Below, piece by piece: positions 9,646-55,441 of a DNA stretch of 64,000 bases. The notes under the pieces were generated by a model. The model had not been told where the DNA came from. It saw nothing but the letters and a program-made list of their open reading frames with translations, and ran no database searches. Source of the DNA: Candidatus Pelagibacterales bacterium (lineage in GTDB: Bacteria; Pseudomonadota; Alphaproteobacteria; Pelagibacterales; AG-422-B15); the NCBI GenBank assembly GCA_045567365.1, contig JBJLDC010000012.1, positions 30,809-94,808 of the forward strand. Direction: 5' to 3'. Within the stretch, counting starts at the first letter, position 1; every line of letters begins with the position of its first letter. Position numbers and translations under genes: made by a program.

Positions 9646-11160
9646 TTATATCAATGCGATAATTCCCAATATTATGATGAATACAACTCCACCTCTAATT
9701 AGATAATTTGGACTCGGTACTTTTTCTTTATTCATTTCACTGATTGTATCAATTGCATTTTCAGCTCTTGATAAAAAATCAGGAAGGTCAGGAACTTTTC
9801 TTGCTAAAACTTTTAAAGTTTCTTGGGTTTCCTTAAGTCTATTCTTTATACCTAATTCATCTTTTAACCATTCTTCAATTTCAGGCTTTGAAACTTCCCA
9901 AAAATTAATATTAGGATCCAAATTTCTTGCAACACCCTCAACAATTATCATTGTCTTTTGAAGAAGTAAAAGTTGAGGTTGCAGTGACATATTAAATTGT
10001 TTTGTTATTTCAAATAACTGCACTAATACATTACCCATAGAGATATTTTTTGCTTTTTGATTTATTATCGGCTCTCCAATTGATCGAAGTGCTTGTGAAA
10101 AATCTTCAATGGATTCGTTTTTATCTATCAATCCTGCTTCTTTATGAATTTTTGCGATATCATGATAATCTTGTCTAATAAATCCATAAATTATTTCTGC
10201 GAGATAACGTCTATTTTGTTTGTCTAATCTCCCCATAATTCCAAAATCTACAGCAATTAAATTACTAGACTCATCAATAAATAAGTTTCCCTGATGAAGG
10301 TCTGCATGAAAGTAACCGTCACGAATAGACTGTCTTAAAAATGTAACAATTAAATTTTTTGCTGCTTGTTGTTTATCTATCTGAGTATTGTCAATTTTAT
10401 CAATAGGTAACCCATCTACTTTTTCAATTGTAAGAACTTTTTGAGACACCTTGTCCCAAAATACACTTGGTACTTTAAAATTTTCATCTCGTTTAGTATT
10501 TTCAGACAACTCAGAAGCAGCAGCAGCCTCATATCTTAGGTCAAGCTCAAATTTAATGACTTCTCTTGCTTTCTTTACTATTGAACCAGCTTGCAATCTT
10601 TTAAACTCTTGAAAATTCTCTAGAAATTTTGTTAACCATTCAAGCCTTTTCATTTCATCTTCAATAATCTCTTTTATGTTTGGCCTCAATATCTTAACAG
10701 CTACTTCAATTTCTTGGCTTTCATTCATAATCTTAGCAAAATGTACTTGAGCGATAGATGCAGCTGCAACTGGTTCACTAAAATTTTTGAATATCTGATC
10801 TATGTCTTTTTGAAATTCTTGTTCAATAATCTTAATTGCTTCATCTTTTGAGAATGGTGGAAGACTGTCTCTTAGCAATGCCATATCTTCAGCAACAACA
10901 TTTCCAATAATATCAGGACGTGTTGATATAAGTTGGCCTAATTTAATAAAAGAGGGGCCAAGTTGATTTAATGCCTGCGCAATTCGAATACCATCAGGAG
11001 ATTCTTTATATTCATTTGACTTTTTTTTCCCCAATGAAATTAGAAATGTAAAAACATCAAATAGAAATTTAAATTTAATATTTTTCCTAATTAGTTTAAG
11101 AATGTTATATTCTTTAAATGTTCTAATAATTTTTATAAAAAAGAAAAAATTAGTTATCAT
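9646..11160 (-). CDS. ubiB: Ubiquinone biosynthesis regulatory kinase-like protein UbiB (ABC1 family)
   Basis: 504 aa with ABC1/ADCK motifs (AAASIAQVH, HADLHQGN, DFG) and a C-terminal TM helix. Its start overlaps the ubiE stop. Confidence 0.85.
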   Translation of the reverse strand: MITNFFFFIKIIRTFKEYNILKLIRKNIKFKFLFDVFTFLISLGKKKSNEYKESPDGIRIAQALNQLGPSFIKLGQLISTRPDIIGNVVAEDMALLRDSLPPFSKDEAIKIIEQEFQKDIDQIFKNFSEPVAAASIAQVHFAKIMNESQEIEVAVKILRPNIKEIIEDEMKRLEWLTKFLENFQEFKRLQAGSIVKKAREVIKFELDLRYEAAAASELSENTKRDENFKVPSVFWDKVSQKVLTIEKVDGLPIDKIDNTQIDKQQAAKNLIVTFLRQSIRDGYFHADLHQGNLFIDESSNLIAVDFGIMGRLDKQNRRYLAEIIYGFIRQDYHDIAKIHKEAGLIDKNESIEDFSQALRSIGEPIINQKAKNISMGNVLVQLFEITKQFNMSLQPQLLLLQKTMIIVEGVARNLDPNINFWEVSKPEIEEWLKDELGIKNRLKETQETLKVLARKVPDLPDFLSRAENAIDTISEMNKEKVPSPNYLIRGGVVFIIILGIIALI

Positions 11161-39066: not shown

Positions 39067-39758
39067 TTAAGCACGCAATAATACTTGCAGCTGGCCTCGG
39101 AAAAAGGATGCTTCCTTTGACTAATGAATTACCAAAACCAATGGTAAAGATTAAAGGAAAACCAATAATTAAACATCTTATTGACTTATTGGATCAAATT
39201 GGAATTGAAAAAATTTGTGTGAATGTGCACTATAAATCTGAGTTATTATCGGATTATCTTGAATCAATTAAAAATAAAAAAATTTTAATTTCAGATGAAA
39301 CTGATGAGCTTCTCGATACAGGAGGAGGAATAAAAAAAGCTTTTGATTTATTAGAAGAAGATAATTCATTTGTATTCAATAGTGACATCTTATGGAATGA
39401 TGTACATGTGGAACAGTTAAGAAATATGTCAGAAAAATTTAACACAAAGGACATGGATGCTCTTCTGGGATTATCACATATTAATAAGCTTGAAGGATAT
39501 GATGGGCTAGGAGATTTTTGTTTTACAGACTCTCAAATTGTTGAGAGATATAAACAAGGCAATGAAAATCCTTATGTATATAGTGGCGTACAGATAATTA
39601 AAAAGAATCTATTAAATTCAATAAGTGAAGCGGTTTTCTCTGTAAATATAGCTTGGGACATTGCAATTAAATCAAATACCTTATATGGATTCAAGCTTGA
39701 ACATCAAATAAAGCATATAGGAACAACTAAAATGGTAGAAAAAGTAAATGAAGAATAA
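39063..39758 (+). CDS. murU: Sugar-1-phosphate nucleotidyltransferase, MurU-like
   Basis: N-terminal ILAAGLGKRMLPLT nucleotidyltransferase motif. It is coupled to amgK by an ATGA overlap. Confidence 0.68.
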   Translation: MIKHAIILAAGLGKRMLPLTNELPKPMVKIKGKPIIKHLIDLLDQIGIEKICVNVHYKSELLSDYLESIKNKKILISDETDELLDTGGGIKKAFDLLEEDNSFVFNSDILWNDVHVEQLRNMSEKFNTKDMDALLGLSHINKLEGYDGLGDFCFTDSQIVERYKQGNENPYVYSGVQIIKKNLLNSISEAVFSVNIAWDIAIKSNTLYGFKLEHQIKHIGTTKMVEKVNEE

Positions 39759-40338
39759 AATTAAATTTTTTATTTTTGTATTTTTTTTATTTATTCCTGA
39801 ATTTGTTTATTCAAACGATAATTTAGCTAATTTCATAATTCGTGATTACAGTGAGGGAGAATTACCAATTGTGGGTAACCCAGATGCTAAATACACTATA
39901 GTTGAGTTTTTTGATTATCGCTGTGGATATTGTTCAAAACAAGCAAATGATCTCGCAAAAATTTTAGAAGAAAAAAATAATGTAAAAATAATTTATTTAG
40001 AATTTCCTATTTTTGGAGGTATATCAGATACTGTTGCAAGAATTGCATTAAGTATTTGGAATAGTAATCCCGAATTATATTTTGATGTTCATAATAAATT
40101 TATGAATTTAGGTCCAAGAATGAAAAAGGACAATATTATTGAAACTCTAAATGGACTAAAGCTTAATGGTGAGTTAATCTTTGCAGAAGCAGAAAAGGAT
40201 ATGGATAATCAAACTATTTTGAAAAATAGATCCTTAGCACAAAGTCTTAATTTAAGAGGTACACCAGCACTCATTATTAATGATAATTTAAGTCCTGGTT
40301 ATCTAAAATACGAAAACTTAATAACTTTCATAGAATAG
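39748..40338 (+). CDS. DsbA-family thiol:disulfide oxidoreductase (periplasmic)
   Basis: Signal peptide and the thioredoxin-fold active site CGYC in FFDYRCGYCS. Confidence 0.75.
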   Translation: MKNKIKFFIFVFFLFIPEFVYSNDNLANFIIRDYSEGELPIVGNPDAKYTIVEFFDYRCGYCSKQANDLAKILEEKNNVKIIYLEFPIFGGISDTVARIALSIWNSNPELYFDVHNKFMNLGPRMKKDNIIETLNGLKLNGELIFAEAEKDMDNQTILKNRSLAQSLNLRGTPALIINDNLSPGYLKYENLITFIE

Positions 40339-43071: not shown

Positions 43072-44787
43072 ATGAAATTATTATCAGTTTTAATTATAGC
43101 TTTATTCTTTGTTTCATGTGGAGAGCAGAATGAAATAAGTATTTTAAAAACTGACATAAATGATGGGCTTAGCGAAGAACACAGAAATGAATTTCGGCGT
43201 GATATTGTTGAGGTAACTGATGGGGTCTATTCTGGTATAGGTTTTGGTTTAGCTAATTCAATCATGATTGAAACAAGTGATGGATTAGTTATTGTAGATA
43301 CTCTCGGTTCTGAAGAACGAGCAACTGAGATGTTGGAAGAGTTTAGAAAAATTTCATCCAAACCGATCAAGGCAATAATTTATACTCATAACCATTTAGA
43401 CCATATTGGAGGCACTACAATTTTTGCCCAAGAAGGAGAGCCAGAAATTTATGCGCATGAGAATATTCTCTACAACATAGATAATATCTCAACAACAATT
43501 AGACCAATAATTTTTGAACGTTCCGCTAGACAGTTTGGAATTCCTCTTCCTGAAGATAAAATTATACATCAGGGCATTGGAGGATTTTTAGAAATTAATG
43601 CTGGTTCCACTATTGGATTATTAAGACCAACGATAACTTTTGAAGATAAATTAGATTTAAAAATTGATGATCTTGAAATAGAGCTCGCTCATGTTCCTGG
43701 AGAGACTGATGATCATTTGTATGTATGGCTACCTGAACAGAAGGCTGTAATGGTAGGTGACAATTTTTATAGAACATTTGCAAATCTATATGCAATTAGA
43801 GGAACAAAATTCAGAAACCCAATGGAATGGGTTCATAGTATTGATAAAATAAGAGAGTTAGATGCTGAATATTTAATTCCAAGTCATAGCAGACCAATTG
43901 TGGGCAAAGAAAATATTGCTAAAGCGTTACTAGATTATAGAGATGGTATTCAGTTTGTTCATGATCAAACAATAAGACATATTAATAAAGGTCTATTACC
44001 AGATGAGATTGTAAAAATAGTAAAATTACCACCTCATTTAGCCAGTTCACCCTACCTTCAAGAATTTTATGGTTCTATTAGTTCTTATGTACGATCAGTT
44101 TTTTCAGGGTATATAGGCTGGTTTAGTGGAAATATAACGGAGTTACATCCTTTAGATAATACTATTAAAGCACAAAAAATAAGAGAGCTTGCTGAGAGAA
44201 GTATTTCTTTAAATGATGCAGCGGAAAGCGCACTGAAGAATGGTGAATTTCAGTGGGCAATGGAACTTGCTGATATTCTATTAGCTCTCAATCCTGAGGA
44301 TGAAGGCTCAAAGAAAATAAAAGCACAGGCAGCAGAGAATTTTTCTTATACTCAAACAGCTTCTAATGATTACTATTATTATCAAACTGTAGCAGGTGAG
44401 CTACGTGGGGAAATCGATGTTTATACAAATAGTAATAAAGTAACTCCAGCTCAACTTTATGCCACTCCAATGAAAACTATTTTTAATTCAATTCCCGTAA
44501 ACTTAAATGCAGAGAAGTCATTGGAAGTAGATAAGAAAGTTTTATTTACATTCACTGACTTAGAACAAGTTTTTAGAATTCATATAAGGCGAGGAGTAGC
44601 TGAATTAACTTATATATCTCAAAATGATGAGGAATTAGTAATTAAAACTGATCAACAGTCACTCAAAGAAATTTTTGCTGGATTAAAGAGTGTTCCTAGT
44701 ATTTCTCTCATGTTAGCTAAAAATGAAATTGAAGTTGAAGGTGGGAAAATAGAGTTTCTAAAGTTTTTATCTCTATTTCAAGGCTAA
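43072..44787 (+). CDS. Alkyl/aryl-sulfatase, SdsA1 type (MBL fold plus dimerisation plus SCP2-like C-terminus), lipoprotein
   Basis: Lipobox FFVSCG, the metallo-beta-lactamase motif HNHLDHIGG, and a 571-aa length and architecture typical of type III sulfatases. Confidence 0.8.
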   Translation: MKLLSVLIIALFFVSCGEQNEISILKTDINDGLSEEHRNEFRRDIVEVTDGVYSGIGFGLANSIMIETSDGLVIVDTLGSEERATEMLEEFRKISSKPIKAIIYTHNHLDHIGGTTIFAQEGEPEIYAHENILYNIDNISTTIRPIIFERSARQFGIPLPEDKIIHQGIGGFLEINAGSTIGLLRPTITFEDKLDLKIDDLEIELAHVPGETDDHLYVWLPEQKAVMVGDNFYRTFANLYAIRGTKFRNPMEWVHSIDKIRELDAEYLIPSHSRPIVGKENIAKALLDYRDGIQFVHDQTIRHINKGLLPDEIVKIVKLPPHLASSPYLQEFYGSISSYVRSVFSGYIGWFSGNITELHPLDNTIKAQKIRELAERSISLNDAAESALKNGEFQWAMELADILLALNPEDEGSKKIKAQAAENFSYTQTASNDYYYYQTVAGELRGEIDVYTNSNKVTPAQLYATPMKTIFNSIPVNLNAEKSLEVDKKVLFTFTDLEQVFRIHIRRGVAELTYISQNDEELVIKTDQQSLKEIFAGLKSVPSISLMLAKNEIEVEGGKIEFLKFLSLFQG

Positions 44788-45234
44788 ATGGGTTACAGGT
44801 CATCACTTATAGTAGGTATTTTAGGGTTAATACCATTTGTAATAATTTTTTTCTGTTGTTTAATAACACCTGCTGATCAAGAGGTATATAATCTATTAAT
44901 TTATTTATTTATTTCTTATGCCGCTATTATTTCATCTTTTTTAGGAGGTATACAATGGGGATTGATCACTGCTTCTGCTGACCGGATATATAATGTTCTC
45001 TTGCCATTACTAATATCAACGGTTCCTGCATTAATGGGGTGGTCCGCTTTAATCTTTATAACTAATCTATTCTATTCGTTAATAATCATTGTTATTTCCT
45101 TCTTAATTGCTTTGGCTCATGATTATTATTTGTATAATACTAAAGCTACTCCTTATTGGTTTTTAAATATAAGAGTTCCGTTGACGAGCTCAGTTATAGT
45201 GCTTTCATTTATGATGTTTTTTTATATTGATTAG
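44788..45234 (+). CDS. DUF3429-family small membrane protein
   Basis: 148 aa with four TM helices and the FLGGIQWG motif. Its start directly abuts the sulfatase stop (TAAATG). Confidence 0.55.
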   Translation: MGYRSSLIVGILGLIPFVIIFFCCLITPADQEVYNLLIYLFISYAAIISSFLGGIQWGLITASADRIYNVLLPLLISTVPALMGWSALIFITNLFYSLIIIVISFLIALAHDYYLYNTKATPYWFLNIRVPLTSSVIVLSFMMFFYID

Positions 45235-46463
45235 TTAATTATTCTTGAAACAAACCAAAAAATACCAAAGCTTATCACTAAAACAAAAATTAAATTTTTA
45301 AAAAATATTTCAAAATTTCTTAACTGTAAATATGAAATTAATTTTAAGAAGATTAAAATTAATGAAACAAAGATAATTTGCCCAATTTCAACGCCTATAT
45401 TAAAACCGGCTAAGCCATAAATTAAATTATAATTCTGAATTTCAGTTTTAAGAAGAAATGATCCAAATCCATAACCATGAATTAGACCAAATAAAACGGT
45501 AATAATGTATATAAGTATATTCTTATTTCTTAAATTTTTATATAAACCAAAATAACCTATAGAGAATATTATAATTCCAATCAATGTGGTTTTGGATATT
45601 AAAATTGGATTAATCAGACCAAGGGATAATAATAAAATTAATGCTGCTATTAATAAAAAAAATATCTCCTTAAATTTTTTTGTTCTTTCCAAGAAGTATT
45701 CAAGACCAAGAAAAAAAATTGTGAATCCAATAAGGGACTCGACAAGCATCATATTTGGAGTTGCATAACCTAGAGTAGAAAAAATAAGGGTAATACTATG
45801 ACCTAGTGTAAAACCTGTTATCACTATCAATAATTTTCTAATGCTTGAAATAAGTAAGACTAGTCCAGCAATAAATAAAAGATGATCGTATCCGTTTAGT
45901 ATGTGCTCAATGCCAATTTTTATGAAATTAAATATACTTGATAAAAAATCATTATTTTTTTCTTCGTTTTTATTCTCTGCTAAGTTGATAGATTGATCAT
46001 TATAGAAAAGAGCTTTTTCTAATATTATACTGTCTTCTTCATATATCCTTGCAATATGAATATGGCTTGGAATGATATCAAAAAATGCATTGTTAATTAT
46101 TTTAATTGCTTCTGGTTGCTTACATTGAAATTTCATTGCAACATTTATTGAACCTTCTTTTGAAGGTATTAAATGCATTGGTTTAATTTGGATGCATATA
46201 TCATTTCCGGATATAACTTTTAATCGTTTTTCAAGATATTTTATGAATGCTTCACTTTCGCTTAAGTTTTGTTCATAAAGAAATTTTTCTATGTCAGGTA
46301 ATTTTAAGACCCGAGTAGCTTCTATTTCAAATACATTAAATGTGCCATCAACGTTAACTCCATTTATATTCCATTTCGAATGTGACTCACTAAAATAATG
46401 TGCATTAGATGGATAAATTGAAACAAAAAATATGAATATTAAAAATTTAATTATTTTTAACAT
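45231..46463 (-). CDS. HupE/UreJ-family membrane protein with a ~170-aa N-terminal periplasmic extension
   Basis: Signal peptide ending SNA|HYF, a soluble domain, then GYDHLLFIAGLVLL and six TM helices typical of HupE_UreJ_2 metal permease-like proteins. Confidence 0.6.
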   Translation of the reverse strand: MLKIIKFLIFIFFVSIYPSNAHYFSESHSKWNINGVNVDGTFNVFEIEATRVLKLPDIEKFLYEQNLSESEAFIKYLEKRLKVISGNDICIQIKPMHLIPSKEGSINVAMKFQCKQPEAIKIINNAFFDIIPSHIHIARIYEEDSIILEKALFYNDQSINLAENKNEEKNNDFLSSIFNFIKIGIEHILNGYDHLLFIAGLVLLISSIRKLLIVITGFTLGHSITLIFSTLGYATPNMMLVESLIGFTIFFLGLEYFLERTKKFKEIFFLLIAALILLLSLGLINPILISKTTLIGIIIFSIGYFGLYKNLRNKNILIYIITVLFGLIHGYGFGSFLLKTEIQNYNLIYGLAGFNIGVEIGQIIFVSLILIFLKLISYLQLRNFEIFFKNLIFVLVISFGIFWFVSRIIN

Positions 46464-47319
46464 CTAAGTCATATCTCTTAATATTAGCATTTTCTTTTAG
46501 ATACTGAATATAATCCTTAAAATACTTATCATCCTTTGAATTTTTAAAATCAAATAAAATTTTATCATACAGTCTATTAAATAAATCAATATCTTTGATA
46601 TCACTATTTGTATTTCTAATTTGAATTAATAAGAAACCATTTTCATATTTAATCGGATTAGAAATATCATTTAGGTTTAACTCAAAAATATCTTTACATA
46701 TATTATTTCCTAATAATTGATTGCAGTCTTTTATGCTAATAAGGCGATTAGGAATTGAAAAAAAAAGCTCTTGATGAAATTGTTTTTTTGACTCTTCAAA
46801 TCCGATTGTGCTAATTGCTTCAAGTAACAAATTAATATCTTCTTCTCTCTGAGAGTTTAAAAAAATTATATCTAAGTGAATTAATTTACTTAATTGATAC
46901 TTTTTTTTATTATTTTTATAATATTCTCTTAATTCTTTTTCAGTAACTTCTTCTTCATTTTGCAGAAGAACTGAATTAATTACTTGTTGAATAATTGCTT
47001 TTCTAATCTGAATATCAAATTTATGAAGTTCAAGTTCAATTCCTTTTTGTAAAAGAAGTTCTTCCTCTATCATTTTCTCAAGAACAATTTCAAGTAATTC
47101 CTCGTCATTTTCATCGATTACATCGATTCCAAGTGTACTTATATATTTAATATATTGATCTTCAGATATGGTCATGTCGTTCACCAGAGCGACTGCATTT
47201 TGTTGTCTTAAATATTGATTTGAAGACTTAGATTGAAACAATTCTTGAGAAATTAGTAAGACGCCAATTATTAATGCAAAAACAAAAAGATAATTAATGT
47301 TGTTTATGAGGCGAAACAT
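46447..47319 (-). CDS. Membrane-anchored SurA/PpiD-like chaperone with a degenerate parvulin-like region
   Basis: N-terminal TM helix, VALVNDMTISEDQY (SurA-N-like), and TEKELREYYKNNKKKY. I cannot find a clean parvulin catalytic motif. It overlaps the downstream HupE-like start by 17 nt. Confidence 0.42.
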   Translation of the reverse strand: MFRLINNINYLFVFALIIGVLLISQELFQSKSSNQYLRQQNAVALVNDMTISEDQYIKYISTLGIDVIDENDEELLEIVLEKMIEEELLLQKGIELELHKFDIQIRKAIIQQVINSVLLQNEEEVTEKELREYYKNNKKKYQLSKLIHLDIIFLNSQREEDINLLLEAISTIGFEESKKQFHQELFFSIPNRLISIKDCNQLLGNNICKDIFELNLNDISNPIKYENGFLLIQIRNTNSDIKDIDLFNRLYDKILFDFKNSKDDKYFKDYIQYLKENANIKRYDLDVKNN

Positions 47320-47375
47320 ATCTCTTGCACTATCATCAATTTTTCTCCATTATTCAAGTGTTTCAAGGAAAATTT

Positions 47376-49778
47376 ATGACAATAATTAAATATTTTTTAT
47401 ATCTACTCATTGCAGTTTTTTTATTTATTTCAGCAGGAGTGGTTATATTAGATAGAGGTTTTTTTTCTGAGTCTTTGGGGCCAGGAGAAATTCAGGGAAA
47501 AATAAATTCTTCTGAGTTTGTGGTAAATAAAACTGAAAATTATAAAAATGCTGCAAAATCTGTAAATGCAAACAATGAAAAACAAATTTTATTTGGTGAT
47601 CTTCACGTTCATTCTACATTTTCATTAGACGCACATCAAATGAGCTTACCTATTGTTGGTGGAGTGGGAGTTCATCCAGTCGCCGATGCATGTGATTTTG
47701 CTAGACACTGTTCTGCACTTGATTTTTGGTCGATCAATGATCATGCGGAAAGTCTAACTCCTAAGAGATGGAAAGAAACAAAAGAAACTATACGAAAATG
47801 TAATCAACTTAATATTGATAAAGAAAATCCAGACTGCGTAGCTTTTCTAGGCTGGGAATGGACACAAGTTGGGGCTAACCGTGGTACTCATTGGGGACAT
47901 CATAATGTTATTTTGGCTGAAGAAGAAGAAGCTTTAGTCCCTGCAAGACCTATTGCATCGCAAAGTATTGCTCGTCAAGTACTTGGAAATGCACCTGACT
48001 GGCCAAATGTAACGTATGCATTTATCGATATGAAAAATTTTAAGAGATACCTTGATTTTAATAATTATGTCACAGAGATTTTAGATACGCCAATATGTGA
48101 GAGAGGGGTGCCATCGAAAGAGCTTCCAATAGATTGTAGTGAAGATGCATTAACACCACTTGTTTTAGCTAATAAAGTAAATGAATACGACAGCGATTAT
48201 ATAATTATTCCACATGGACAAACATGGGGACTTTATACGCCTAAAGGTTATACCCTGGATAAAGGACTTGAGCTTTCAAAGCAGTACCCTCATCAATTTG
48301 ATTTATTAGAGATTCACTCTGGTCATGGAAATAGTGAAGAATATAGATCTTGGCGTGCAGGTAAAGTAACGAGAGAGTCTGAAGTTGTTGTTGATACCAT
48401 GATCAACGTAAGAGACGTGACTGAGTTAGATTTTCAAACTGGCACTTTAATAGCTACGGTAGATGGGAAAGAAAGATCATTTGATTTCGGGACTCAAGTG
48501 TGTCCAGAGCCTTCGGAAAACTACACACCTCAATGTTGGAAGTTAGGAGAAATCATTTATGAAAGATGTATAAAAGCTGGTGTAAACAAAAACGAATGTG
48601 ATGAGAGAAAAATTAAGACACAGCAAATTGTTGTAGACCGCGGTCGCACAGGAGTAAATGCTATTTCTAACTTAACAGAAAGAGATAAATTAGATTCAGG
48701 CCAGTGCCGTGATTGCTTTTCTCCTGCGATGAATTACGTACCGGGTGGAAGTGCTCAGTATGGAATGGCTCTTACAAAATTTAAGGATGATGGATCTAAG
48801 CATCGATTTAAATATGGGTTCATTTCATCTAGTGATAATCATCAGGCTGCACCAGGTTCAGGTTATAAAGAATTGTTTCATACAAGTGTTGACGGTGTTG
48901 GGCCACCAAAAGAATTATTTGACAAATTCTTACACATGGAGCCTTACACTATAGGTGCTAAAAATGAAAACCCCGTGAAGGATGCATATATATCTGATGA
49001 CCAGCCAATTGATTTTGATCTTACTAAACTAACCCTTGGATTTAATACGATTGAATGGGAGCGACAGAGATCTTTTTTTCAAACTGGGGGATTAGCAGCT
49101 GTACACTCTGAAGGAAGGTCAAAAGAAGAAATTTGGGATGCTTTCAAGAGACATGAAACTTATGCAACAAGTGGTCCAAGAATTCTACTTTGGTTTGATC
49201 TTGTAAATAATCAAGATAGCAAAAATGGAAAATCACCTATGGGTTCTCTCGTAGAAATGAATCAGAACCCTGAATTTGAAGTCAGAGCTATGGGATCATA
49301 TGTTCAAAAAAGTGGATGCCCAGAAGATGCCTATACAGCACTTGGAGAAGATCGTGTGAACGAGCTTTGTTATAATGAATGTTATAATCCATCTGATGAA
49401 CGTAAGAAGATAACAAGAATTGAGGTTATTAGAGTTTGGCCTCAAGAGTACATAAATCAACCAATAGATGAAAGAATTGAAGATACATGGCTAGTTCACA
49501 ATTGTGACACTGACAAACTTGGATGCAGATTTACTTTTACTGATCCAGATTTTTCAACTATGCAGTCAGATGTTAGCTATTATGCAAGAGCAATTGAAGA
49601 GCCATCACCAATTATAAATGTGAAGGGTGCTCACTGCATATTCGATGAAGAGGGTAATTGTTCTGAATTTAAAATATGCACTCAGGATTTTAAAAATCCC
49701 CGTGACCTTGAAGCATGCACTAGCATTGATGAACCAAGGGCCTGGTCATCTCCAATATATCTAAATTATAAGTTATAA
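47376..49778 (+). CDS. DUF3604-family protein (PHP-like metal-dependent phosphoesterase fold), membrane-anchored/periplasmic and Cys-rich
   Basis: FGDLHVHSTFSLDA (the DUF3604/PHP N-terminal metal motif), an N-terminal TM helix, and many Cys residues. I prefer ATG 47376 (AAGGA upstream) over the track's TTG at 47325. Confidence 0.7.
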   Translation: MTIIKYFLYLLIAVFLFISAGVVILDRGFFSESLGPGEIQGKINSSEFVVNKTENYKNAAKSVNANNEKQILFGDLHVHSTFSLDAHQMSLPIVGGVGVHPVADACDFARHCSALDFWSINDHAESLTPKRWKETKETIRKCNQLNIDKENPDCVAFLGWEWTQVGANRGTHWGHHNVILAEEEEALVPARPIASQSIARQVLGNAPDWPNVTYAFIDMKNFKRYLDFNNYVTEILDTPICERGVPSKELPIDCSEDALTPLVLANKVNEYDSDYIIIPHGQTWGLYTPKGYTLDKGLELSKQYPHQFDLLEIHSGHGNSEEYRSWRAGKVTRESEVVVDTMINVRDVTELDFQTGTLIATVDGKERSFDFGTQVCPEPSENYTPQCWKLGEIIYERCIKAGVNKNECDERKIKTQQIVVDRGRTGVNAISNLTERDKLDSGQCRDCFSPAMNYVPGGSAQYGMALTKFKDDGSKHRFKYGFISSSDNHQAAPGSGYKELFHTSVDGVGPPKELFDKFLHMEPYTIGAKNENPVKDAYISDDQPIDFDLTKLTLGFNTIEWERQRSFFQTGGLAAVHSEGRSKEEIWDAFKRHETYATSGPRILLWFDLVNNQDSKNGKSPMGSLVEMNQNPEFEVRAMGSYVQKSGCPEDAYTALGEDRVNELCYNECYNPSDERKKITRIEVIRVWPQEYINQPIDERIEDTWLVHNCDTDKLGCRFTFTDPDFSTMQSDVSYYARAIEEPSPIINVKGAHCIFDEEGNCSEFKICTQDFKNPRDLEACTSIDEPRAWSSPIYLNYKL

Positions 49779-49908: not shown

Positions 49909-51186
49909 ATGTTTAAAAACATAATCATTTATATTTTTATTGCTACTCTCACTTCTTCATCTGCATATGCAGGCGTTGACCAAGAAGTAGCTTATATTTT
50001 TAATACTTTTTCTTTTTTGGTTTGCGGATTCTTAGTTATGTGGATGGCAGCAGGATTTTGTATGCTGGAGTCTGGTTTAGTTACAACTCGTAGTGTTTCA
50101 ACTATCGCGGCTAAAAATATTGGAAAATTTGCTATTGTTTCTGTTGTTTTTTACCTCGTAGGTTACAACCTTGGATATGGTATACCAGAAGGTGGATATA
50201 TTGGAACTTTTTCAACTTGGACAGATACATCTTCAATTGAAACTGGATATTCCGGTGCATCAGATTGGTTCTTTCAAACATTATTTGTTTGTGCAACATG
50301 TTCAATAGTTTCAGGAGCAGTTGCAGAAAGAATAAAAATTTGGCCATTCTTTTTATTTTCGGCGATACTCGGTGGATTTATCTATCCCATTCAAATGGGA
50401 TGGGAATGGGGCGGAGGCTGGCTTGATGCATTAGGCTTTGCTGATTTTGCTGGCTCAACACTTGTTCATGCATGTGGAGGTGCAGCAGCACTTGCGGGAA
50501 TAATGCTTTTGGGTCCACGTATTGGTAGATACAGCACAAAAGGTGAAGTGCAATCAATGGAGCCTTTTGCAGCTTCTTCAATTCCATTAGTTGCTCTTGG
50601 AACTTTTATCCTATGGATGGGATGGTTTGGTTTTAATGGTGGCTCTCAGTTAGCACTTGGCTCTTATGAGGATGCAACAGCAATGTCTACAATTTTCATC
50701 AATACTCAACTTGCCGCATGTGGAGGGTGTCTATCTGCTGCAGTAGTTACCCGTTTAGTTGGTGGTAAAACTGATGTTATTATGATGTTAAATGGTTGTT
50801 TAGCAGGATTGGTTTCGATCACTGCTGAACCATTAATGCCATCTCCAATTCTAGCAATTATAATCGGCGCAGTTGGTGGAATAATAATGTACGTTGGTAC
50901 TAATTTTCTAAATAGTATGAAGTTAGATGATGTAGTTGGTGCAATTCCTGTTCATATGTTTGCAGGAATATGGGGCACAATGATTGTACCATTGTCTAAT
51001 CCTGACACCTCATATGTTACTCAATTTATAGGTGTTGCAGCTGTAATTGCTTTTGTCTTTATTGTCTCTTACATAGTCTTATTGATTATAAAAAATACTA
51101 TAGGACTTAGAATCAGTGCAGAAGCAGAAAAACTGGGTACTGACAAATCGGAAGTAGGAGTTGTAGCGTACTCTATTAGAGATTAA
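49909..51186 (+). CDS. amtB: Ammonium transporter (Amt family), copy 1
   Basis: 425 aa with a signal peptide, 11 TM helices, and Amt signatures (DFAGSTLVH, GWFGFNGGS, VGAIPVH). Confidence 0.93.
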   Translation: MFKNIIIYIFIATLTSSSAYAGVDQEVAYIFNTFSFLVCGFLVMWMAAGFCMLESGLVTTRSVSTIAAKNIGKFAIVSVVFYLVGYNLGYGIPEGGYIGTFSTWTDTSSIETGYSGASDWFFQTLFVCATCSIVSGAVAERIKIWPFFLFSAILGGFIYPIQMGWEWGGGWLDALGFADFAGSTLVHACGGAAALAGIMLLGPRIGRYSTKGEVQSMEPFAASSIPLVALGTFILWMGWFGFNGGSQLALGSYEDATAMSTIFINTQLAACGGCLSAAVVTRLVGGKTDVIMMLNGCLAGLVSITAEPLMPSPILAIIIGAVGGIIMYVGTNFLNSMKLDDVVGAIPVHMFAGIWGTMIVPLSNPDTSYVTQFIGVAAVIAFVFIVSYIVLLIIKNTIGLRISAEAEKLGTDKSEVGVVAYSIRD

Positions 51187-51205
51187 CCCTTAACTTTTAA
51201 AATTG

Positions 51206-51239
51206 CCCCTCAATCTTAAATGATTGAGGGGTTTTTTTT
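51206..51239 (+). terminator. Rho-independent terminator after amt copy 1
   Basis: CCCCTCAATC-ttaaat-GATTGAGGGG is a perfect 10-bp stem followed by T8. Confidence 0.85.
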
Positions 51240-51256
51240 ATTCTATTTTTTTGTTA

Positions 51257-51307
51257 ATGCCATTTTGGCAAAAAGTTTAATGACATGATGGCATAAGAGT
51301 CGAGTTG
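51257..51307 (+). promoter_or_regulatory. Shared amt upstream motif, copy 2 (51280-51307), plus an extra palindrome ATGCCA-ttt-TGGCAA (51257-51271)
   Basis: ATGACA-tga-TGGCAT-aaga-GTC-gag-TTG aligns with copy 1 without gaps. A second ATGNCA-N3-TGGCAW palindrome starts 23 bp upstream. Confidence 0.5.
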
Positions 51308-51368
51308 TTTCTTTGTTTTATCCAAATGATAGTGAGTTAACTTAAATTTTTTAAACGGAGAAATTAGA

Positions 51369-52637
51369 ATGATTAAAAGAATAGTTTTATACTCATTACT
51401 ATTCACTTCTTTATTAAGTGTTAGTGCTTATGCAGGAACAGATGATGAAACTGCTTATGCTCTGAACACTTTATTATTTTTAGTAAGTGGATTCTTAGTA
51501 ATGTTAATGGCTGCAGGGTTCTGTATGCTTGAATCAGGAATGGTTACATCTAAAAGTGTATCCACAATTGCCGCAAAAAATATTGGGCTATATTCAATTG
51601 CAGGACTTATGTTCTGGGTTATAGGATACAATGTTGCTTATGGTATACCAGAAGGTGGATATATTGGATCATTCACCCCATGGAGTGATGCTTCCGCAAT
51701 TGATACAGGCTATTCTGATGGATCTGATTGGTTTTTCCAAATGGTTTTTTGCGCAACAACAGTTTCAATTGTATCAGGAACATTAGCTGAAAGAATCAAA
51801 ATATGGCCTTTCTTTTTGTTTGCTGCAATTTTAACTGGAATTATTTATCCAATTGAAATGGGTTGGCAGTGGGGAGGCGGTTGGTTATCAGCTGCTGGCT
51901 TCTCAGATTTTGCTGGTTCAACTCTAGTGCACGCGGCGGGTGGTGCAGCAGCATTGGCTGGTGCGATCGTACTAGGTCCTCGTCTTGGTAGATTTAGTAA
52001 TGGTAAATTAGTACCATTTGCTAGTTCGTCTATTCCATTAGCAACACTTGGAACATTTATTTTATGGTTCGGCTGGTTCGGCTTTAATGGTGGATCTCAA
52101 TTAGCTCTAGCTGGTTTTGAAAATGCTACTGCCGTAGCTACCATTTATATTAATACAAATCTTGCTGCTTGTGCTGGTGTTATGACTTGCGCTGTTATTA
52201 CTAGATTAATAAATGGTAAGACAGATGTTATAATGATGTTAAATGGTGCGCTGGGTGGACTTGTTGCTATTACAGCTGAGCCACTTACTCCAACTCCATT
52301 AATGGCTATTATTATTGGTTCAATTGGTGGAATTATTGTAATACTTGGTACTCAAGCTCTTAACAAATTTCAGATTGATGATGTTGTAGGGGCTATTCCA
52401 GTTCACTTATTTGCTGGTATATGGGGTACTCTTGCTGTTCCTCTAACTAATAGTGGTACATCTTTTGGACCACAATTACTTGGTACTGCTTCAATATGTG
52501 CTTTTGTATTCGTAGTTTCATTCATTGTCTGGTCAATTATGAAAGCAACTATAGGTATAAGAATAAGCGAAGAAGCTGAAAAAGAAGGAACTGATATAGC
52601 GGAAACTGGTGTAACAGCTTACGCAATCAGAGACTAA
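51369..52637 (+). CDS. amtB: Ammonium transporter (Amt family), copy 2
   Basis: 422 aa and collinear with copy 1. By eye, roughly two-thirds or more of aligned residues are identical. GGAG RBS present. Confidence 0.93.
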   Translation: MIKRIVLYSLLFTSLLSVSAYAGTDDETAYALNTLLFLVSGFLVMLMAAGFCMLESGMVTSKSVSTIAAKNIGLYSIAGLMFWVIGYNVAYGIPEGGYIGSFTPWSDASAIDTGYSDGSDWFFQMVFCATTVSIVSGTLAERIKIWPFFLFAAILTGIIYPIEMGWQWGGGWLSAAGFSDFAGSTLVHAAGGAAALAGAIVLGPRLGRFSNGKLVPFASSSIPLATLGTFILWFGWFGFNGGSQLALAGFENATAVATIYINTNLAACAGVMTCAVITRLINGKTDVIMMLNGALGGLVAITAEPLTPTPLMAIIIGSIGGIIVILGTQALNKFQIDDVVGAIPVHLFAGIWGTLAVPLTNSGTSFGPQLLGTASICAFVFVVSFIVWSIMKATIGIRISEEAEKEGTDIAETGVTAYAIRD

Positions 52638-53777: not shown

Positions 53778-54185
53778 ATGTTATTAACCTTTTATAAAGA
53801 GGGTGTGGAATGTGGATTTCCATCTCCAGCTAGGGATTTTACCGAGAGCTCTATAGATTTAAATGAAGAGCTGATTCATCGCCCCAACTCAACTTTTGTC
53901 GTTAGAGCACGTGGTCATTCAATGATTGATGCAGGCATATCACCTGGTGATTTAATTATTGTTGATCGAAGTTTAAAGCCACGTCATGGATCAGTAATAG
54001 TTGCAGTATTAGATGGAGAACTCAGTATTAAGATTCTTAATATAAAAAGTAAACATGATATTTCATTAGAATCAGCAAATAAAAACTATGAAGATGTTCA
54101 TGTCTCAGAAGAAATGGATTTTATGATTTGGGGTGTCTGTACATATGTAGTTCACGATCTGAAAAAACTTAATTCTTCTTTATGA
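53778..54185 (+). CDS. umuD: Translesion polymerase V accessory subunit UmuD (S24 LexA-like peptidase)
   Basis: The ECGFPSPA block contains the Cys-Gly cleavage site. The Ser nucleophile is in GHSMIDAG and the Lys is in LSIKIL. An in-frame TAA two codons upstream fixes the start. Confidence 0.88.
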
Positions 54186-55441
54186 AAAAAAAAGTTTTTG
54201 CACTCATAGACTGTAATGCATTTTATGTTTCTTGTGAGAGAGTGTTCAATCCAAAATTAAATAATAAACCTGTAGTAGCACTGTCCAATAATGATGGATG
54301 CATTATTGCTAGATCTAAAGAAGCAAAAGCTCTTGGTATTAAGATGGGAGTTCCACTTTTTAAAGTTAAAGACATTGTAGAAAGAGAAAATGTAATTGTA
54401 TTTTCATCTAACTATACTTTGTATGCAGATATGTCACGACGAGTTATGAATATAATATCTGAGTTTACTCCAAGTATTGAAGTTTATTCAATTGATGAAG
54501 CATTTATTGAGCTAACCAATATGAATGTAGACTATGAGTCTTATGCTCGTCATATGAGAAAAGTAATTTTACAATATACAGGTATTCCAGTTAGTATTGG
54601 TATTGCCTCAACAAAGACTCTAACAAAAGTAGCAAATCATATCGCTAAAGATGATGAGTCTTTAGAAGGTGTATGCTCACTAATTCAACACGAGAATTTA
54701 GATCAAGTTTTAGAAGATACCAACGTCGCAGATGTATGGGGTGTTGGACGACAGCTGTCTAAGAAGTTAATAGCGAACGGTATATTTAATGCCAAACTAC
54801 TGAAAAATTGTGAAGATGCATGGGTTCGAAAAATGATGAGTGTTAATGGATTAAAAACAGTATCTGAATTAAGAGAGATATCTTGTCTAGATCTGGAGGA
54901 AACTTCTGCTACTCGAAAAAGCTGTTGCACTACAAGATCATTTGGAAAACCATTGATAAATCTTGAAGATATAGAGCAGGCAGTTACCACGTTTGCTCGT
55001 CGCGCAACAGAGAGAATTAGAGGTGAAAATTTAATTGCTTCCACAGTCTCTGTTTTCTTAAGAACAAATCCTTTTGATAGAAACCGTTATTATTCAAATA
55101 GTTCAACCACAACGTTGAGTTATCCAACTTATGATACGGTGCAGATAGTGAAGATAGCCTTACAGTTAACTAAAATAATTTTTCGAGAAAATTATAAGTA
55201 TAAGAAGGCAGGTGTTCTATTAAGTGGGCTTTATGAAAAAGGCACTGAAACAAAAGATTTATTTTCTGAGACAAGATATAGATCACCAAAATTAATGTCT
55301 GCGGTTGATCAAATTAACGAGCGTTATGGGAGTGATACAATTCAAATAGCAACAGAATGTCAGATGGGCAAATGGAAACAAAAAAGAAAGAATTGTACTC
55401 AGAGTTATACCACCCAACTTGATAATGTTTTATTGATTTAA
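54182..55441 (+). CDS. umuC: Y-family DNA polymerase V catalytic subunit UmuC
   Basis: 419 aa with N-terminal [16 protein letters not shown], the SIDEAF catalytic motif, and an ATGA overlap with umuD. Confidence 0.9.

Follow-up and report, generated by a model that had tools for sequence, protein, structure and literature searches.

How enzymes that fold outside the cytoplasm acquire their metals is a long-standing problem, and few dedicated systems are known. Among the known systems closest to the locus reported here are the 'anglerases', domains named Ang-1 and Ang-2 that are fused to HupE/UreJ-2 permeases and have been suggested to trap metal that is to be imported (Franco Cairo et al., Nat Commun 2025, PMC12537917; PDB 9GCE). 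These domains bind Cu2+/Ni2+ at nanomolar Kd through His1, and their published gene neighbourhoods contain DUF4198, IndA-like and PfkB genes, with Rotamase_2 counted three times and DUF3604 unmentioned (PMC12537917). ZrgA of Vibrio cholerae and PA4063 of Pseudomonas aeruginosa are Zur-regulated periplasmic zinc-binding proteins (PMC9820375, PMC8561739). Maturation of the Zn cofactor in YcdX, a PHP phosphatase, requires the chaperone YcdY (PMC4464133), and the TerC-family proteins MeeF and MeeY metallate Sec-exported enzymes in Bacillus subtilis (PMC10550928). Here we describe a locus in a 64,000-nucleotide stretch of DNA from Candidatus Pelagibacterales bacterium (contig JBJLDC010000012.1, positions 30,809 to 94,808; hereafter the window), in which three genes within 45231-49778 encode a HupE/UreJ-2 permease (minus strand), a SurA-like chaperone (minus strand) and a divergent DUF3604 protein (plus strand). 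Across genomes, the chaperone and permease genes form an obligate pair, of which DUF3604 is the most frequent but dispensable partner.

An earlier note, made from the window sequence, had described these three open reading frames (ORFs), and both the ORF list and Pfam bore it out (Table 1). The permease and chaperone genes overlap by 17 nucleotides (nt). Each of the three proteins carries an N-terminal anchor or signal peptide. The window has a G+C content of ~30%, and copies of the DUF3604 gene at 91-97% identity occur in single-cell and metagenome-assembled genomes (MAGs) of Pelagibacteraceae (SAR11). DUF3604 proteins and SurA-like chaperones are already known families.

An alignment of 40 diverse DUF3604 sequences was used to retrieve 80 metagenome loci (41-64% identity). 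ORFs were called in all 80 and searched with iterated profiles of both minus-strand proteins. We counted a locus as informative if it extended at least 2.6 kb on both sides or held a positive match (n = 44). The chaperone and permease genes adjoined DUF3604 in 24 of these 44 loci. Sixteen of the linked loci had DUF3604, chaperone and permease in that order on one strand, as did L034, where an ORF call was over-long; three were convergent and four divergent like the window. Were the genes scattered at random over a genome holding a few thousand of them, roughly 0.1% would be expected by our own estimate, and the adjacency is not due to chance. A convergent form of the trio was observed in a gammaproteobacterial MAG, and one Binatia and one Myxococcota locus had DUF3604 without the pair. 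A neighbour-joining tree placed linked loci in most of the major clades of DUF3604, with unlinked loci scattered among them. One linked locus, L041, was scored on an 80-amino-acid (aa) piece of the chaperone where the contig stops; between this piece and a second, canonical DUF3604 lies a gene that is not a HupE.

We also performed the reverse look-up, using eight diverse permease homologs. A chaperone-family gene lay directly upstream of the permease in all eight cases and overlapped it in most. DUF3604 was found within 4 kb of the permease in 4/8: in the cultured Pseudomaricurvus alkylphenolicus, a Binatia MAG, a TARA contig and L101. Two further loci were cut by contig ends. The linkage of the three families that the earlier note had put up for survey is therefore present outside the window in both directions of search. 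In P. alkylphenolicus (L093, GCA_011683955.1, 4424-11574) the module is expanded: a 278-aa chaperone gene is followed by DUF3604, a gene for a 141-aa protein with the SurA core only, the permease and a second DUF3604. The two DUF3604 paralogs are 53% identical, and AraC-type regulators flank the whole. Additional chaperone paralogs accompany additional DUF3604 genes in both L093 and L101. Among the neighbours of the surveyed loci we found no consistent fourth partner gene; apart from the acyl-CoA dehydrogenases and enoyl-CoA hydratases described below, they were lineage-specific. The obligate chaperone-permease pairing and the recurrent DUF3604 linkage appear to be unreported in the searchable literature.

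Two of the loci also encode DUF3604 forms from other subfamilies. In L101 (11386-14564) a 789-aa form scores only 88 bits to the window subfamily profile and has its own distant Rotamase_2 gene downstream, and the canonical form in L041 (12270-14225) is a 651-aa lipoprotein. The association of DUF3604 with parvulin-like proteins may thus extend past the window subfamily. Acyl-CoA dehydrogenases were the commonest neighbours of linked loci (7/102), and an enoyl-CoA hydratase gene (ECH_1) adjoined DUF3604 in eight mostly unlinked loci (L006, L026, L036, L037, L057, L060, L082 and L084). A lipid or acyl-CoA theme among DUF3604 neighbours is possible.

The N-terminus of the permease resembles a signal peptide and about six or seven hydrophobic helices come after it, and Pfam HupE_UreJ_2 (PF13795) matches it only from residue ~180 (125 bits against a cut-off of 24.5). 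Distant homologs all have a signal peptide that closes with A-x-A directly before a His, within the motif H-x-[R/F]-S-x-S-x-S-x-W. The earlier note had allowed that the N-terminal region might be a mis-called start; the signal peptide and domain are conserved in homologs, with an invariant His after the predicted cleavage, and the region is not mis-called. In alignments of 16, 34 and 22 sequences, His22, Ser27, Ser29, Cys90, Cys114 and His136 of the N-domain were invariant, and so were Trp31 and His134 in two of these alignments, their conservation in the remaining one being at least 90%. The domain holds a conserved SH(I/V)H motif and a Cys pair, and after cleavage His22 probably forms a metal site with this motif. 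Invariant residues of the membrane domain were H187-x5-D193-H194, H222, E242, H329, N355, E359 and Q362, the first motif being invariant both in 16 and in 34 diverse homologs. HX5DH in the first membrane helix is said, from work by Eitinger in 2005 and on Rhizobium HupE, to be the HupE/NiCoT metal motif. By analogy with HupE/NiCoT families, metal-cation permeation would be the typical role of such invariant polar residues (HX5DH, His, Glu, Asn, Gln).

In the AlphaFold model, residues 26-160 form a beta-sandwich with three helices between strands 2 and 3, followed by a short low-confidence linker and a helical domain. Foldseek placed the N-domain closest to ZrgA (8f1b; E 2.7e-5, target-normalised TM-score 0.70), with PA4063 also matched. 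The match to Ang-1 (9gce; E 6e-4, probability 1.0) had a target-normalised TM-score of only 0.44 and a root-mean-square deviation of 8.3. Neither the full-length nor the N-domain profile matched any PDB chain, 9GCE included, at E ≤ 10. A domain-only profile found 931 clusters among 1.84 billion representatives. Nearly all of these are 390-440 aa long and carry the domain at residues ~20-170, which means that in them it is joined to the permease; the short matches look like truncated gene calls. An apparent chaperone-permease fusion (P0428, 733 aa) was rejected, as its N-terminal part has no Rotamase match, and it is probably an over-long gene call.

These features compare closely with anglerases in architecture and less closely in detail. 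Both have a signal peptide, an invariant His as first mature residue, a beta-sandwich whose strand 2 is joined to strand 3 via three helices (seen for the window domain in the AF2 model), a flexible linker and a PF13795 permease, and ZrgA (8F1B) is the closest solved fold for both. However, the window N-domain has no detectable sequence similarity to the 9GCE chain and only a modest structural match to it. Its family invariants are H-x-[R/F]-S-x-S-x-S-x-W, the Cys pair (read as a disulfide) and SH(I/V)H, whereas RbAng-1a uses His1 and a non-conserved Asn41. The permease architecture is thus a class published in 2025 and not a new one, although the window protein belongs to it only distantly. 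The earlier note had called the N-terminal extension unusual; the ~150-aa periplasmic domain is real, but the architecture had been described as that of anglerases (PMC12537917).

The window N-domain would share with ZrgA and PA4063 a role as periplasmic, His-based metal binders feeding a membrane transporter (PMC9820375, PMC8561739). ZrgA differs in being a free protein, partnered by the MacB-like ABC transporter ZrgBC, and in having long His-rich loops. The window N-domain is covalently fused to a secondary permease, lacks a His-rich loop and starts with a putatively metal-binding His, and no ABC-transporter genes are adjacent in the window.

The chaperone matches Pfam Rotamase_2 (PF13145; E 3e-10, 41.2 bits against a cut-off of 27) and has one N-terminal membrane anchor. 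SurA_N_3 and SurA_N_2 (PF13624/PF13623) score 20.8 and 19.3 bits in the window protein, under their cut-offs of 27-28; its homologs carry unmarked SurA_N matches, and the family alignment has a strongly conserved SurA_N-type segment, EEELLxQRGxEL...RK. The same alignment shows no conserved His or Cys, so the chaperone is unlikely to bind metal itself. Parvulin peptidyl-prolyl isomerases such as Par10 and Pin1 are recognised by a catalytic His pair and an active-site loop. We observed that many lineages keep the C-terminal His (G[F/Y]H[V/I]L), but that Leu takes its place in the window protein and Tyr or Phe does so in related loci of the SAR11 type. The first catalytic His and the GGDLG-type active-site loop are conserved nowhere in the family. 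The copy directly upstream of the Pseudomaricurvus permease has lost its parvulin domain altogether. Because the catalytic residues are not conserved and the parvulin domain is deleted in this copy, we take the chaperone most plausibly for a holdase anchored in the membrane, and it is probably no isomerase. The earlier statement that it has no recognisable parvulin catalytic motif needs dividing: the catalytic residues are missing, but Pfam does recognise a parvulin-type domain.

Like SurA, PpiD and PrsA, the chaperone combines an N-terminal membrane anchor, a SurA_N-type core and a parvulin-type domain. The parvulin domain of PpiD is reported to be catalytically dead, as that of the window chaperone probably is. 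Lipase-specific (Lif) foldases are encoded beside a single large secreted client, as the window chaperone is beside DUF3604. In contrast to all of these, the window chaperone is much shorter (290 aa) and its family is always paired, upstream, with a metal permease, to which overlap would couple it in translation.

The DUF3604 protein matches Pfam DUF3604 (PF12228; E 8e-23, 81 bits against a cut-off of 20.4); the match is split into four fragments and spans part of the model. Each of the 40 homologs in the alignment matches DUF3604 too, and the window protein belongs to a divergent 750-800-aa subfamily with a mean column identity of 58% across the 40 sequences. At least 5179 homologs were found at E ≤ 1e-3 among 8000 candidates scored. 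Full-length relatives at 41-46% identity occur in Binatia, Myxococcota and Gammaproteobacteria. The protein has a single N-terminal hydrophobic segment and 21 Cys, 20 of which are invariant across the 40 homologs, as would be expected of a protein oxidised in the periplasm, where they would form disulfides. Four of them form a CHCH-like run at 376-408 (spacings 10, 10, 9), a probable disulfide-stapled helical hairpin; its profile resemblance to the eukaryotic CHCH-domain proteins CHCHD1/mS37 is weak (E 0.06).

The AF2 model of this protein (predicted local distance difference test score, pLDDT, 82.5; predicted TM-score 0.87) places its invariant polar residues on or beside core strands. H77 and H79 lie on strand 70-78 with D85 after it, within GDLHVHSTFSLDA at residues 74-86; D122 and H123 lie at strand 117-120, E161 on 155-164, H172 and H175 at 174-180, H280 on 275-280, H317 at 310-315, and D487 and H489 at 481-484. 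On a core of seven strands, these residues follow the PHP-type ligand pattern HxH, H/D, H, E, H, H, DxH, judged against the nine-ligand PHP list of YcdX. hhalign aligned motifs I and II with Escherichia coli YcdX and Rnm (E~0.01), pairing H77/H79/D85/H123 with YcdX H7/H9/H15/H40, and weak Foldseek matches included Pol III alpha PHP domains and 3e38. Pfam PHP gave no match at E ≤ 10 in the 40 DUF3604 members. We read DUF3604 as a probable hydrolase that faces the periplasm, is anchored in the membrane and is probably rich in disulfides, with a trinuclear ligand set of the PHP type. The PHP-like site of the earlier note therefore survives as a ligand pattern on predicted strands and not as a significant PHP match.

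These data are consistent with an extracytoplasmic metal-handling and folding (maturation) module for a PHP-like hydrolase, a reading that we favour while rating it slightly below an even chance. DUF3604 would be exported unfolded through Sec. The chaperone would hold it while its cysteines oxidise, probably into about ten disulfide pairs, and the protein folds. The tethered domain of the permease would pick up scarce metal that is already in the periplasm or that the channel lets out. This His1/His-x-His domain would supply the metal to the three-metal site of DUF3604, and/or the permease would import metal. We infer the physical hand-off from the gene content, linkage, conserved residues and fold similarities described above. 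The sharper version, in which the holdase and the His1-domain permease are a dedicated machine loading a specific metal, possibly zinc, onto a Sec-exported, folding PHP-type hydrolase, is possible but rather unlikely.

Such a module is plausible because it has precedents in YcdY-YcdX (PMC4464133) and TerC metallation (PMC10550928). The ycdX-ycdY-ycdZ operon, which we observed in the E. coli K-12 locus (L097, 3880-5788), likewise encodes a tri-zinc PHP hydrolase, a dedicated chaperone and an inner-membrane protein together. It differs in that YcdX has 245 aa and is not known to be exported, YcdY belongs to the TorD/DmsD family and YcdZ is a DUF1097 protein; these proteins are non-homologous to those of the window except for the PHP-like motifs. 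MeeF and MeeY are, as proposed here for the permease, membrane metal transporters that have been suggested to load enzymes during or after Sec export. They differ in belonging to an unrelated family, in being Mn-specific and in having neither a tethered capture domain nor a dedicated chaperone gene.

Several observations weigh against the maturation module. Neither the pair nor DUF3604 strictly needs the other in cis, because 20/44 informative DUF3604 loci have no pair nearby and 2/8 permease pairs have no DUF3604. The link among the three proteins comes entirely from genomic, sequence and fold data, and the correlation between pairwise distances of the three families (r = 0.82-0.89), although in favour of the module, carries no species-tree control, when vertically inherited genes correlate somewhat anyway. 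The PHP fold is not statistically significant (hhalign probability 4%, Foldseek E ~0.01, no Pfam PHP). HupE/UreJ proteins and anglerases are described as importers into the cytoplasm (PMC12537917), and import alone would not metallate a periplasmic enzyme. The characterised Ang-1 domain prefers Cu/Ni (PMC12537917), and the evidence for zinc given below is anecdotal, coming from one locus with a Zur scan at chance level. The metal-delivery and folding system suggested in the earlier note remains the best reading, as an interpretation in which the pair is obligate and DUF3604 dispensable.

The metal itself can be only tentatively guessed at as zinc, from the ZrgA/PA4063 fold, L089 and zinc-type neighbours. 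In L089 (3291-11359) a NicO-like permease gene precedes DUF3604, chaperone and permease on one strand; a convergent ZnuA gene follows, then a Fur-family gene and a gene for a ZnuC-like ATPase. The znuA/zur intergenic region of this locus contains a perfect Zur box, TGTTATAATATAACA (10033-10047). A Zur-box scan of all loci and the window returned 3 sites in 1.2 Mb against ~4 expected by chance (our own calculation), and among them only this one was convincing. A Zur-box-like site with two mismatches lies in L009 (4810-4824), between the chaperone-permease operon and a TonB-dependent receptor gene; the overall count, as stated, is at chance level. Zn-dependent alcohol dehydrogenase genes lie directly downstream in L062 and L065. 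Exported esterases of typically zinc-using families are encoded nearby in several lineages: a metallo-beta-lactamase (MBL)-fold alkyl sulfatase in SAR11, L078 and L070, an S1/P1 nuclease in L094 and an alkaline phosphatase in L100. The alkyl-sulfatase homologs flank the module in the distant L078 (E 2e-41, beside a classical sulfatase) and partly in L070. The earlier note had referred to HupE/UreJ proteins as Ni/Co-type permeases; nothing in this analysis favours Ni/Co, and the ZrgA/PA4063 fold and L089 hint at zinc instead. HupE proper is a Ni importer, as shown in Rhizobium (cited in PMC12537917, PMC4771312). The metal identity and the enzyme substrate, possibly a phospho- or sulfo-ester, are likewise inferences, and transport may run inward or outward.

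A somewhat unlikely alternative is that the pair is a plain metal importer of the published anglerase kind, in which the N-domain feeds Ni, Cu, Co or Zn to the HupE channel. DUF3604 would then be only co-regulated within one metal-responsive regulon, with no direct hand-off, as a metal-dependent or metal-sparing enzyme or as one that frees metal from organic ligands before uptake. Import is the published model for Ang-HupE/UreJ-2 (PMC12537917), and the demonstrated Ni import by Rhizobium HupE agrees with it, as does the patchy distribution of hupE/ureJ across SAR11 genomes, which resembles that of accessory metal-uptake genes (PMC4771312). In L089 the trio is set among zinc-uptake genes, accompanied by a NicO-like permease, ZnuA and a Fur-family regulator, and TonB-dependent receptors flank the module in L009 and L068. 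However, import leaves unexplained why a SurA-type chaperone is paired with the permease in 8/8 and why extra chaperone paralogs stand beside extra DUF3604 genes. Neither a shared operator nor a riboswitch turned up in the window and the loci searched; metal imported into the cytoplasm would be of no use to a Sec-exported enzyme. As for chance adjacency of unrelated envelope genes, SAR11 genomes are gene-dense, with short gaps and overlaps common, but adjacency of the three families in Alphaproteobacteria, Gammaproteobacteria, Binatia and many unassigned contigs, in three orientations, refutes this explanation, which we hold to be highly improbable.

The exported esterases admit another interpretation, nutrient scavenging, in which DUF3604 hydrolyses an organic phospho- or sulfo-ester outside the cell or in the periplasm, the permease takes up a product instead of free metal and the N-domain is a metal-dependent substrate receptor. 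PHP enzymes are mostly phosphoesterases, the neighbouring MBL alkyl sulfatase, classical sulfatase, S1/P1 nuclease and alkaline phosphatase recur, and a PstS-like protein and a phosphate porin are encoded beside one permease locus. We consider scavenging improbable all the same: in HupE/NiCoT families, polar invariants like those of the membrane domain typically go with the permeation of metal cations, carriage of organic solutes is not known for any HupE relative, and each esterase neighbour occurs in one to three lineages only. The pair could also be a general device that metallates and folds several exported metalloenzymes, DUF3604 being just its commonest neighbour. Metal hydrolases do occur beside pairs, namely alkaline phosphatase and an M1 peptidase in L100, an M48 peptidase in L096, an M24 peptidase translationally coupled upstream in L101, and Amidohydro_2 and MBL proteins on the P0289 contig. 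Yet these are four loci with no background control, and the M1, M24 and M48 neighbours have no evident signal peptides. A general device, which would broaden the maturation module more than oppose it, strikes us as quite doubtful.

Table 1. Positions and supporting evidence of the features of the three-gene locus and one neighbour, in window coordinates
Feature	Position	Strand	Evidence
HupE/UreJ-2 permease gene, Ang-type, 410 aa	45231..46463	-	ORF; Pfam HupE_UreJ_2 E 2e-36; AF2 pLDDT 84
Permease signal peptide, aa 1-21, ending PSNA before H; predicted cleavage would expose His22 as residue 1	46401..46463	-	Conserved hydrophobic N-terminus and A-x-A followed by H; cleavage predicted
Periplasmic beta-sandwich, putative metal-capture domain, aa 22-170	45954..46400	-	Invariant columns, Foldseek, domain-only profile
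HupE/UreJ-2 membrane domain, aa 173-410	45234..45947	-	Pfam, invariant residues, helices in model
Membrane-anchored SurA-like chaperone, degenerate parvulin domain, 290 aa	46447..47319	-	Pfam Rotamase_2, family alignment
Divergent intergenic region, 56 nt	47320..47375		Sequence
DUF3604-subfamily protein, 800 aa: N-terminal anchor, PHP-like core, Cys-rich inserts, C-terminal beta-rich domain	47376..49778	+	Pfam DUF3604; AF2 model
DUF3604 N-terminal hydrophobic signal-anchor helix, aa 1-27	47376..47456	+	One hydrophobic segment 1-31; helix 2-27 in model
PHP-like metal-hydrolase core, aa ~68-500	47577..48875	+	Invariants mapped on predicted strands; hhalign; weak Foldseek matches
CHCH-like run of four Cys, C376-x10-C387-x10-C398-x9-C408	48501..48599	+	Profile match CHCHD1/mS37 E 0.06; all four Cys invariant
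Possibly associated neighbouring gene: alkyl sulfatase of the MBL fold, 571 aa, a lipoprotein (lipobox FFVSC)	43072..44787	+	Pfam Lactamase_B, Alkyl_sulf_dimr and Alkyl_sulf_C

The DUF3604 ORF opens at TTG 47325. Its start is likely the ATG given in Table 1, which would yield the 800-aa protein and the 56-nt divergent gap; we prefer it because an AAGGA Shine-Dalgarno sequence lies 7 nt upstream and because it agrees with homolog N-termini. Promoters for both directions must be located in this gap or inside the coding ends. The gap was alignable only among the closest SAR11 relatives, no shared operator was found, and Rfam gave no RNA or riboswitch match in the window or in 12 operon-bearing loci.

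Further genes surround the locus in the window. The alkyl sulfatase gene and a gene for a DUF3429 membrane protein (within 43072-45234) are convergent with the permease gene. Some 7 kb upstream of the Cys-rich DUF3604 gene, at 39748-40338, is a gene for a DsbA-like secreted thiol-disulfide oxidoreductase (CGYC motif). Two tandem Amt ammonium-transporter paralogs lie directly downstream of DUF3604 (49909-52637), and one Amt is syntenic in L011, a 61% identity relative. Beyond them, at 53778-55441, is a umuD-like (Peptidase_S24) and umuC-like (IMS Y-polymerase) pair for SOS translesion synthesis, in a streamlined SAR11 genome; this pair is also syntenic in L011.

The locus links a class of metal-capturing permeases with no known client, the large, widespread and uncharacterised DUF3604 family and a private chaperone. 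If the sharper version, a dedicated metallation machine, is right, Gram-negative bacteria would have an equivalent of the exoenzyme metallation carried out by TerC. Such a machine would also supply a first client for anglerases, and a biogenesis pathway and functional handle for DUF3604. The presence of the module in the cultured P. alkylphenolicus makes the hypothesis directly testable. SAR11 bacteria are the most abundant marine heterotrophs, and in their setting trace metals are scarce and each retained gene likely matters. If DUF3604 is an exported phospho- or sulfo-esterase, the module would have a bearing on marine organic-nutrient cycling.

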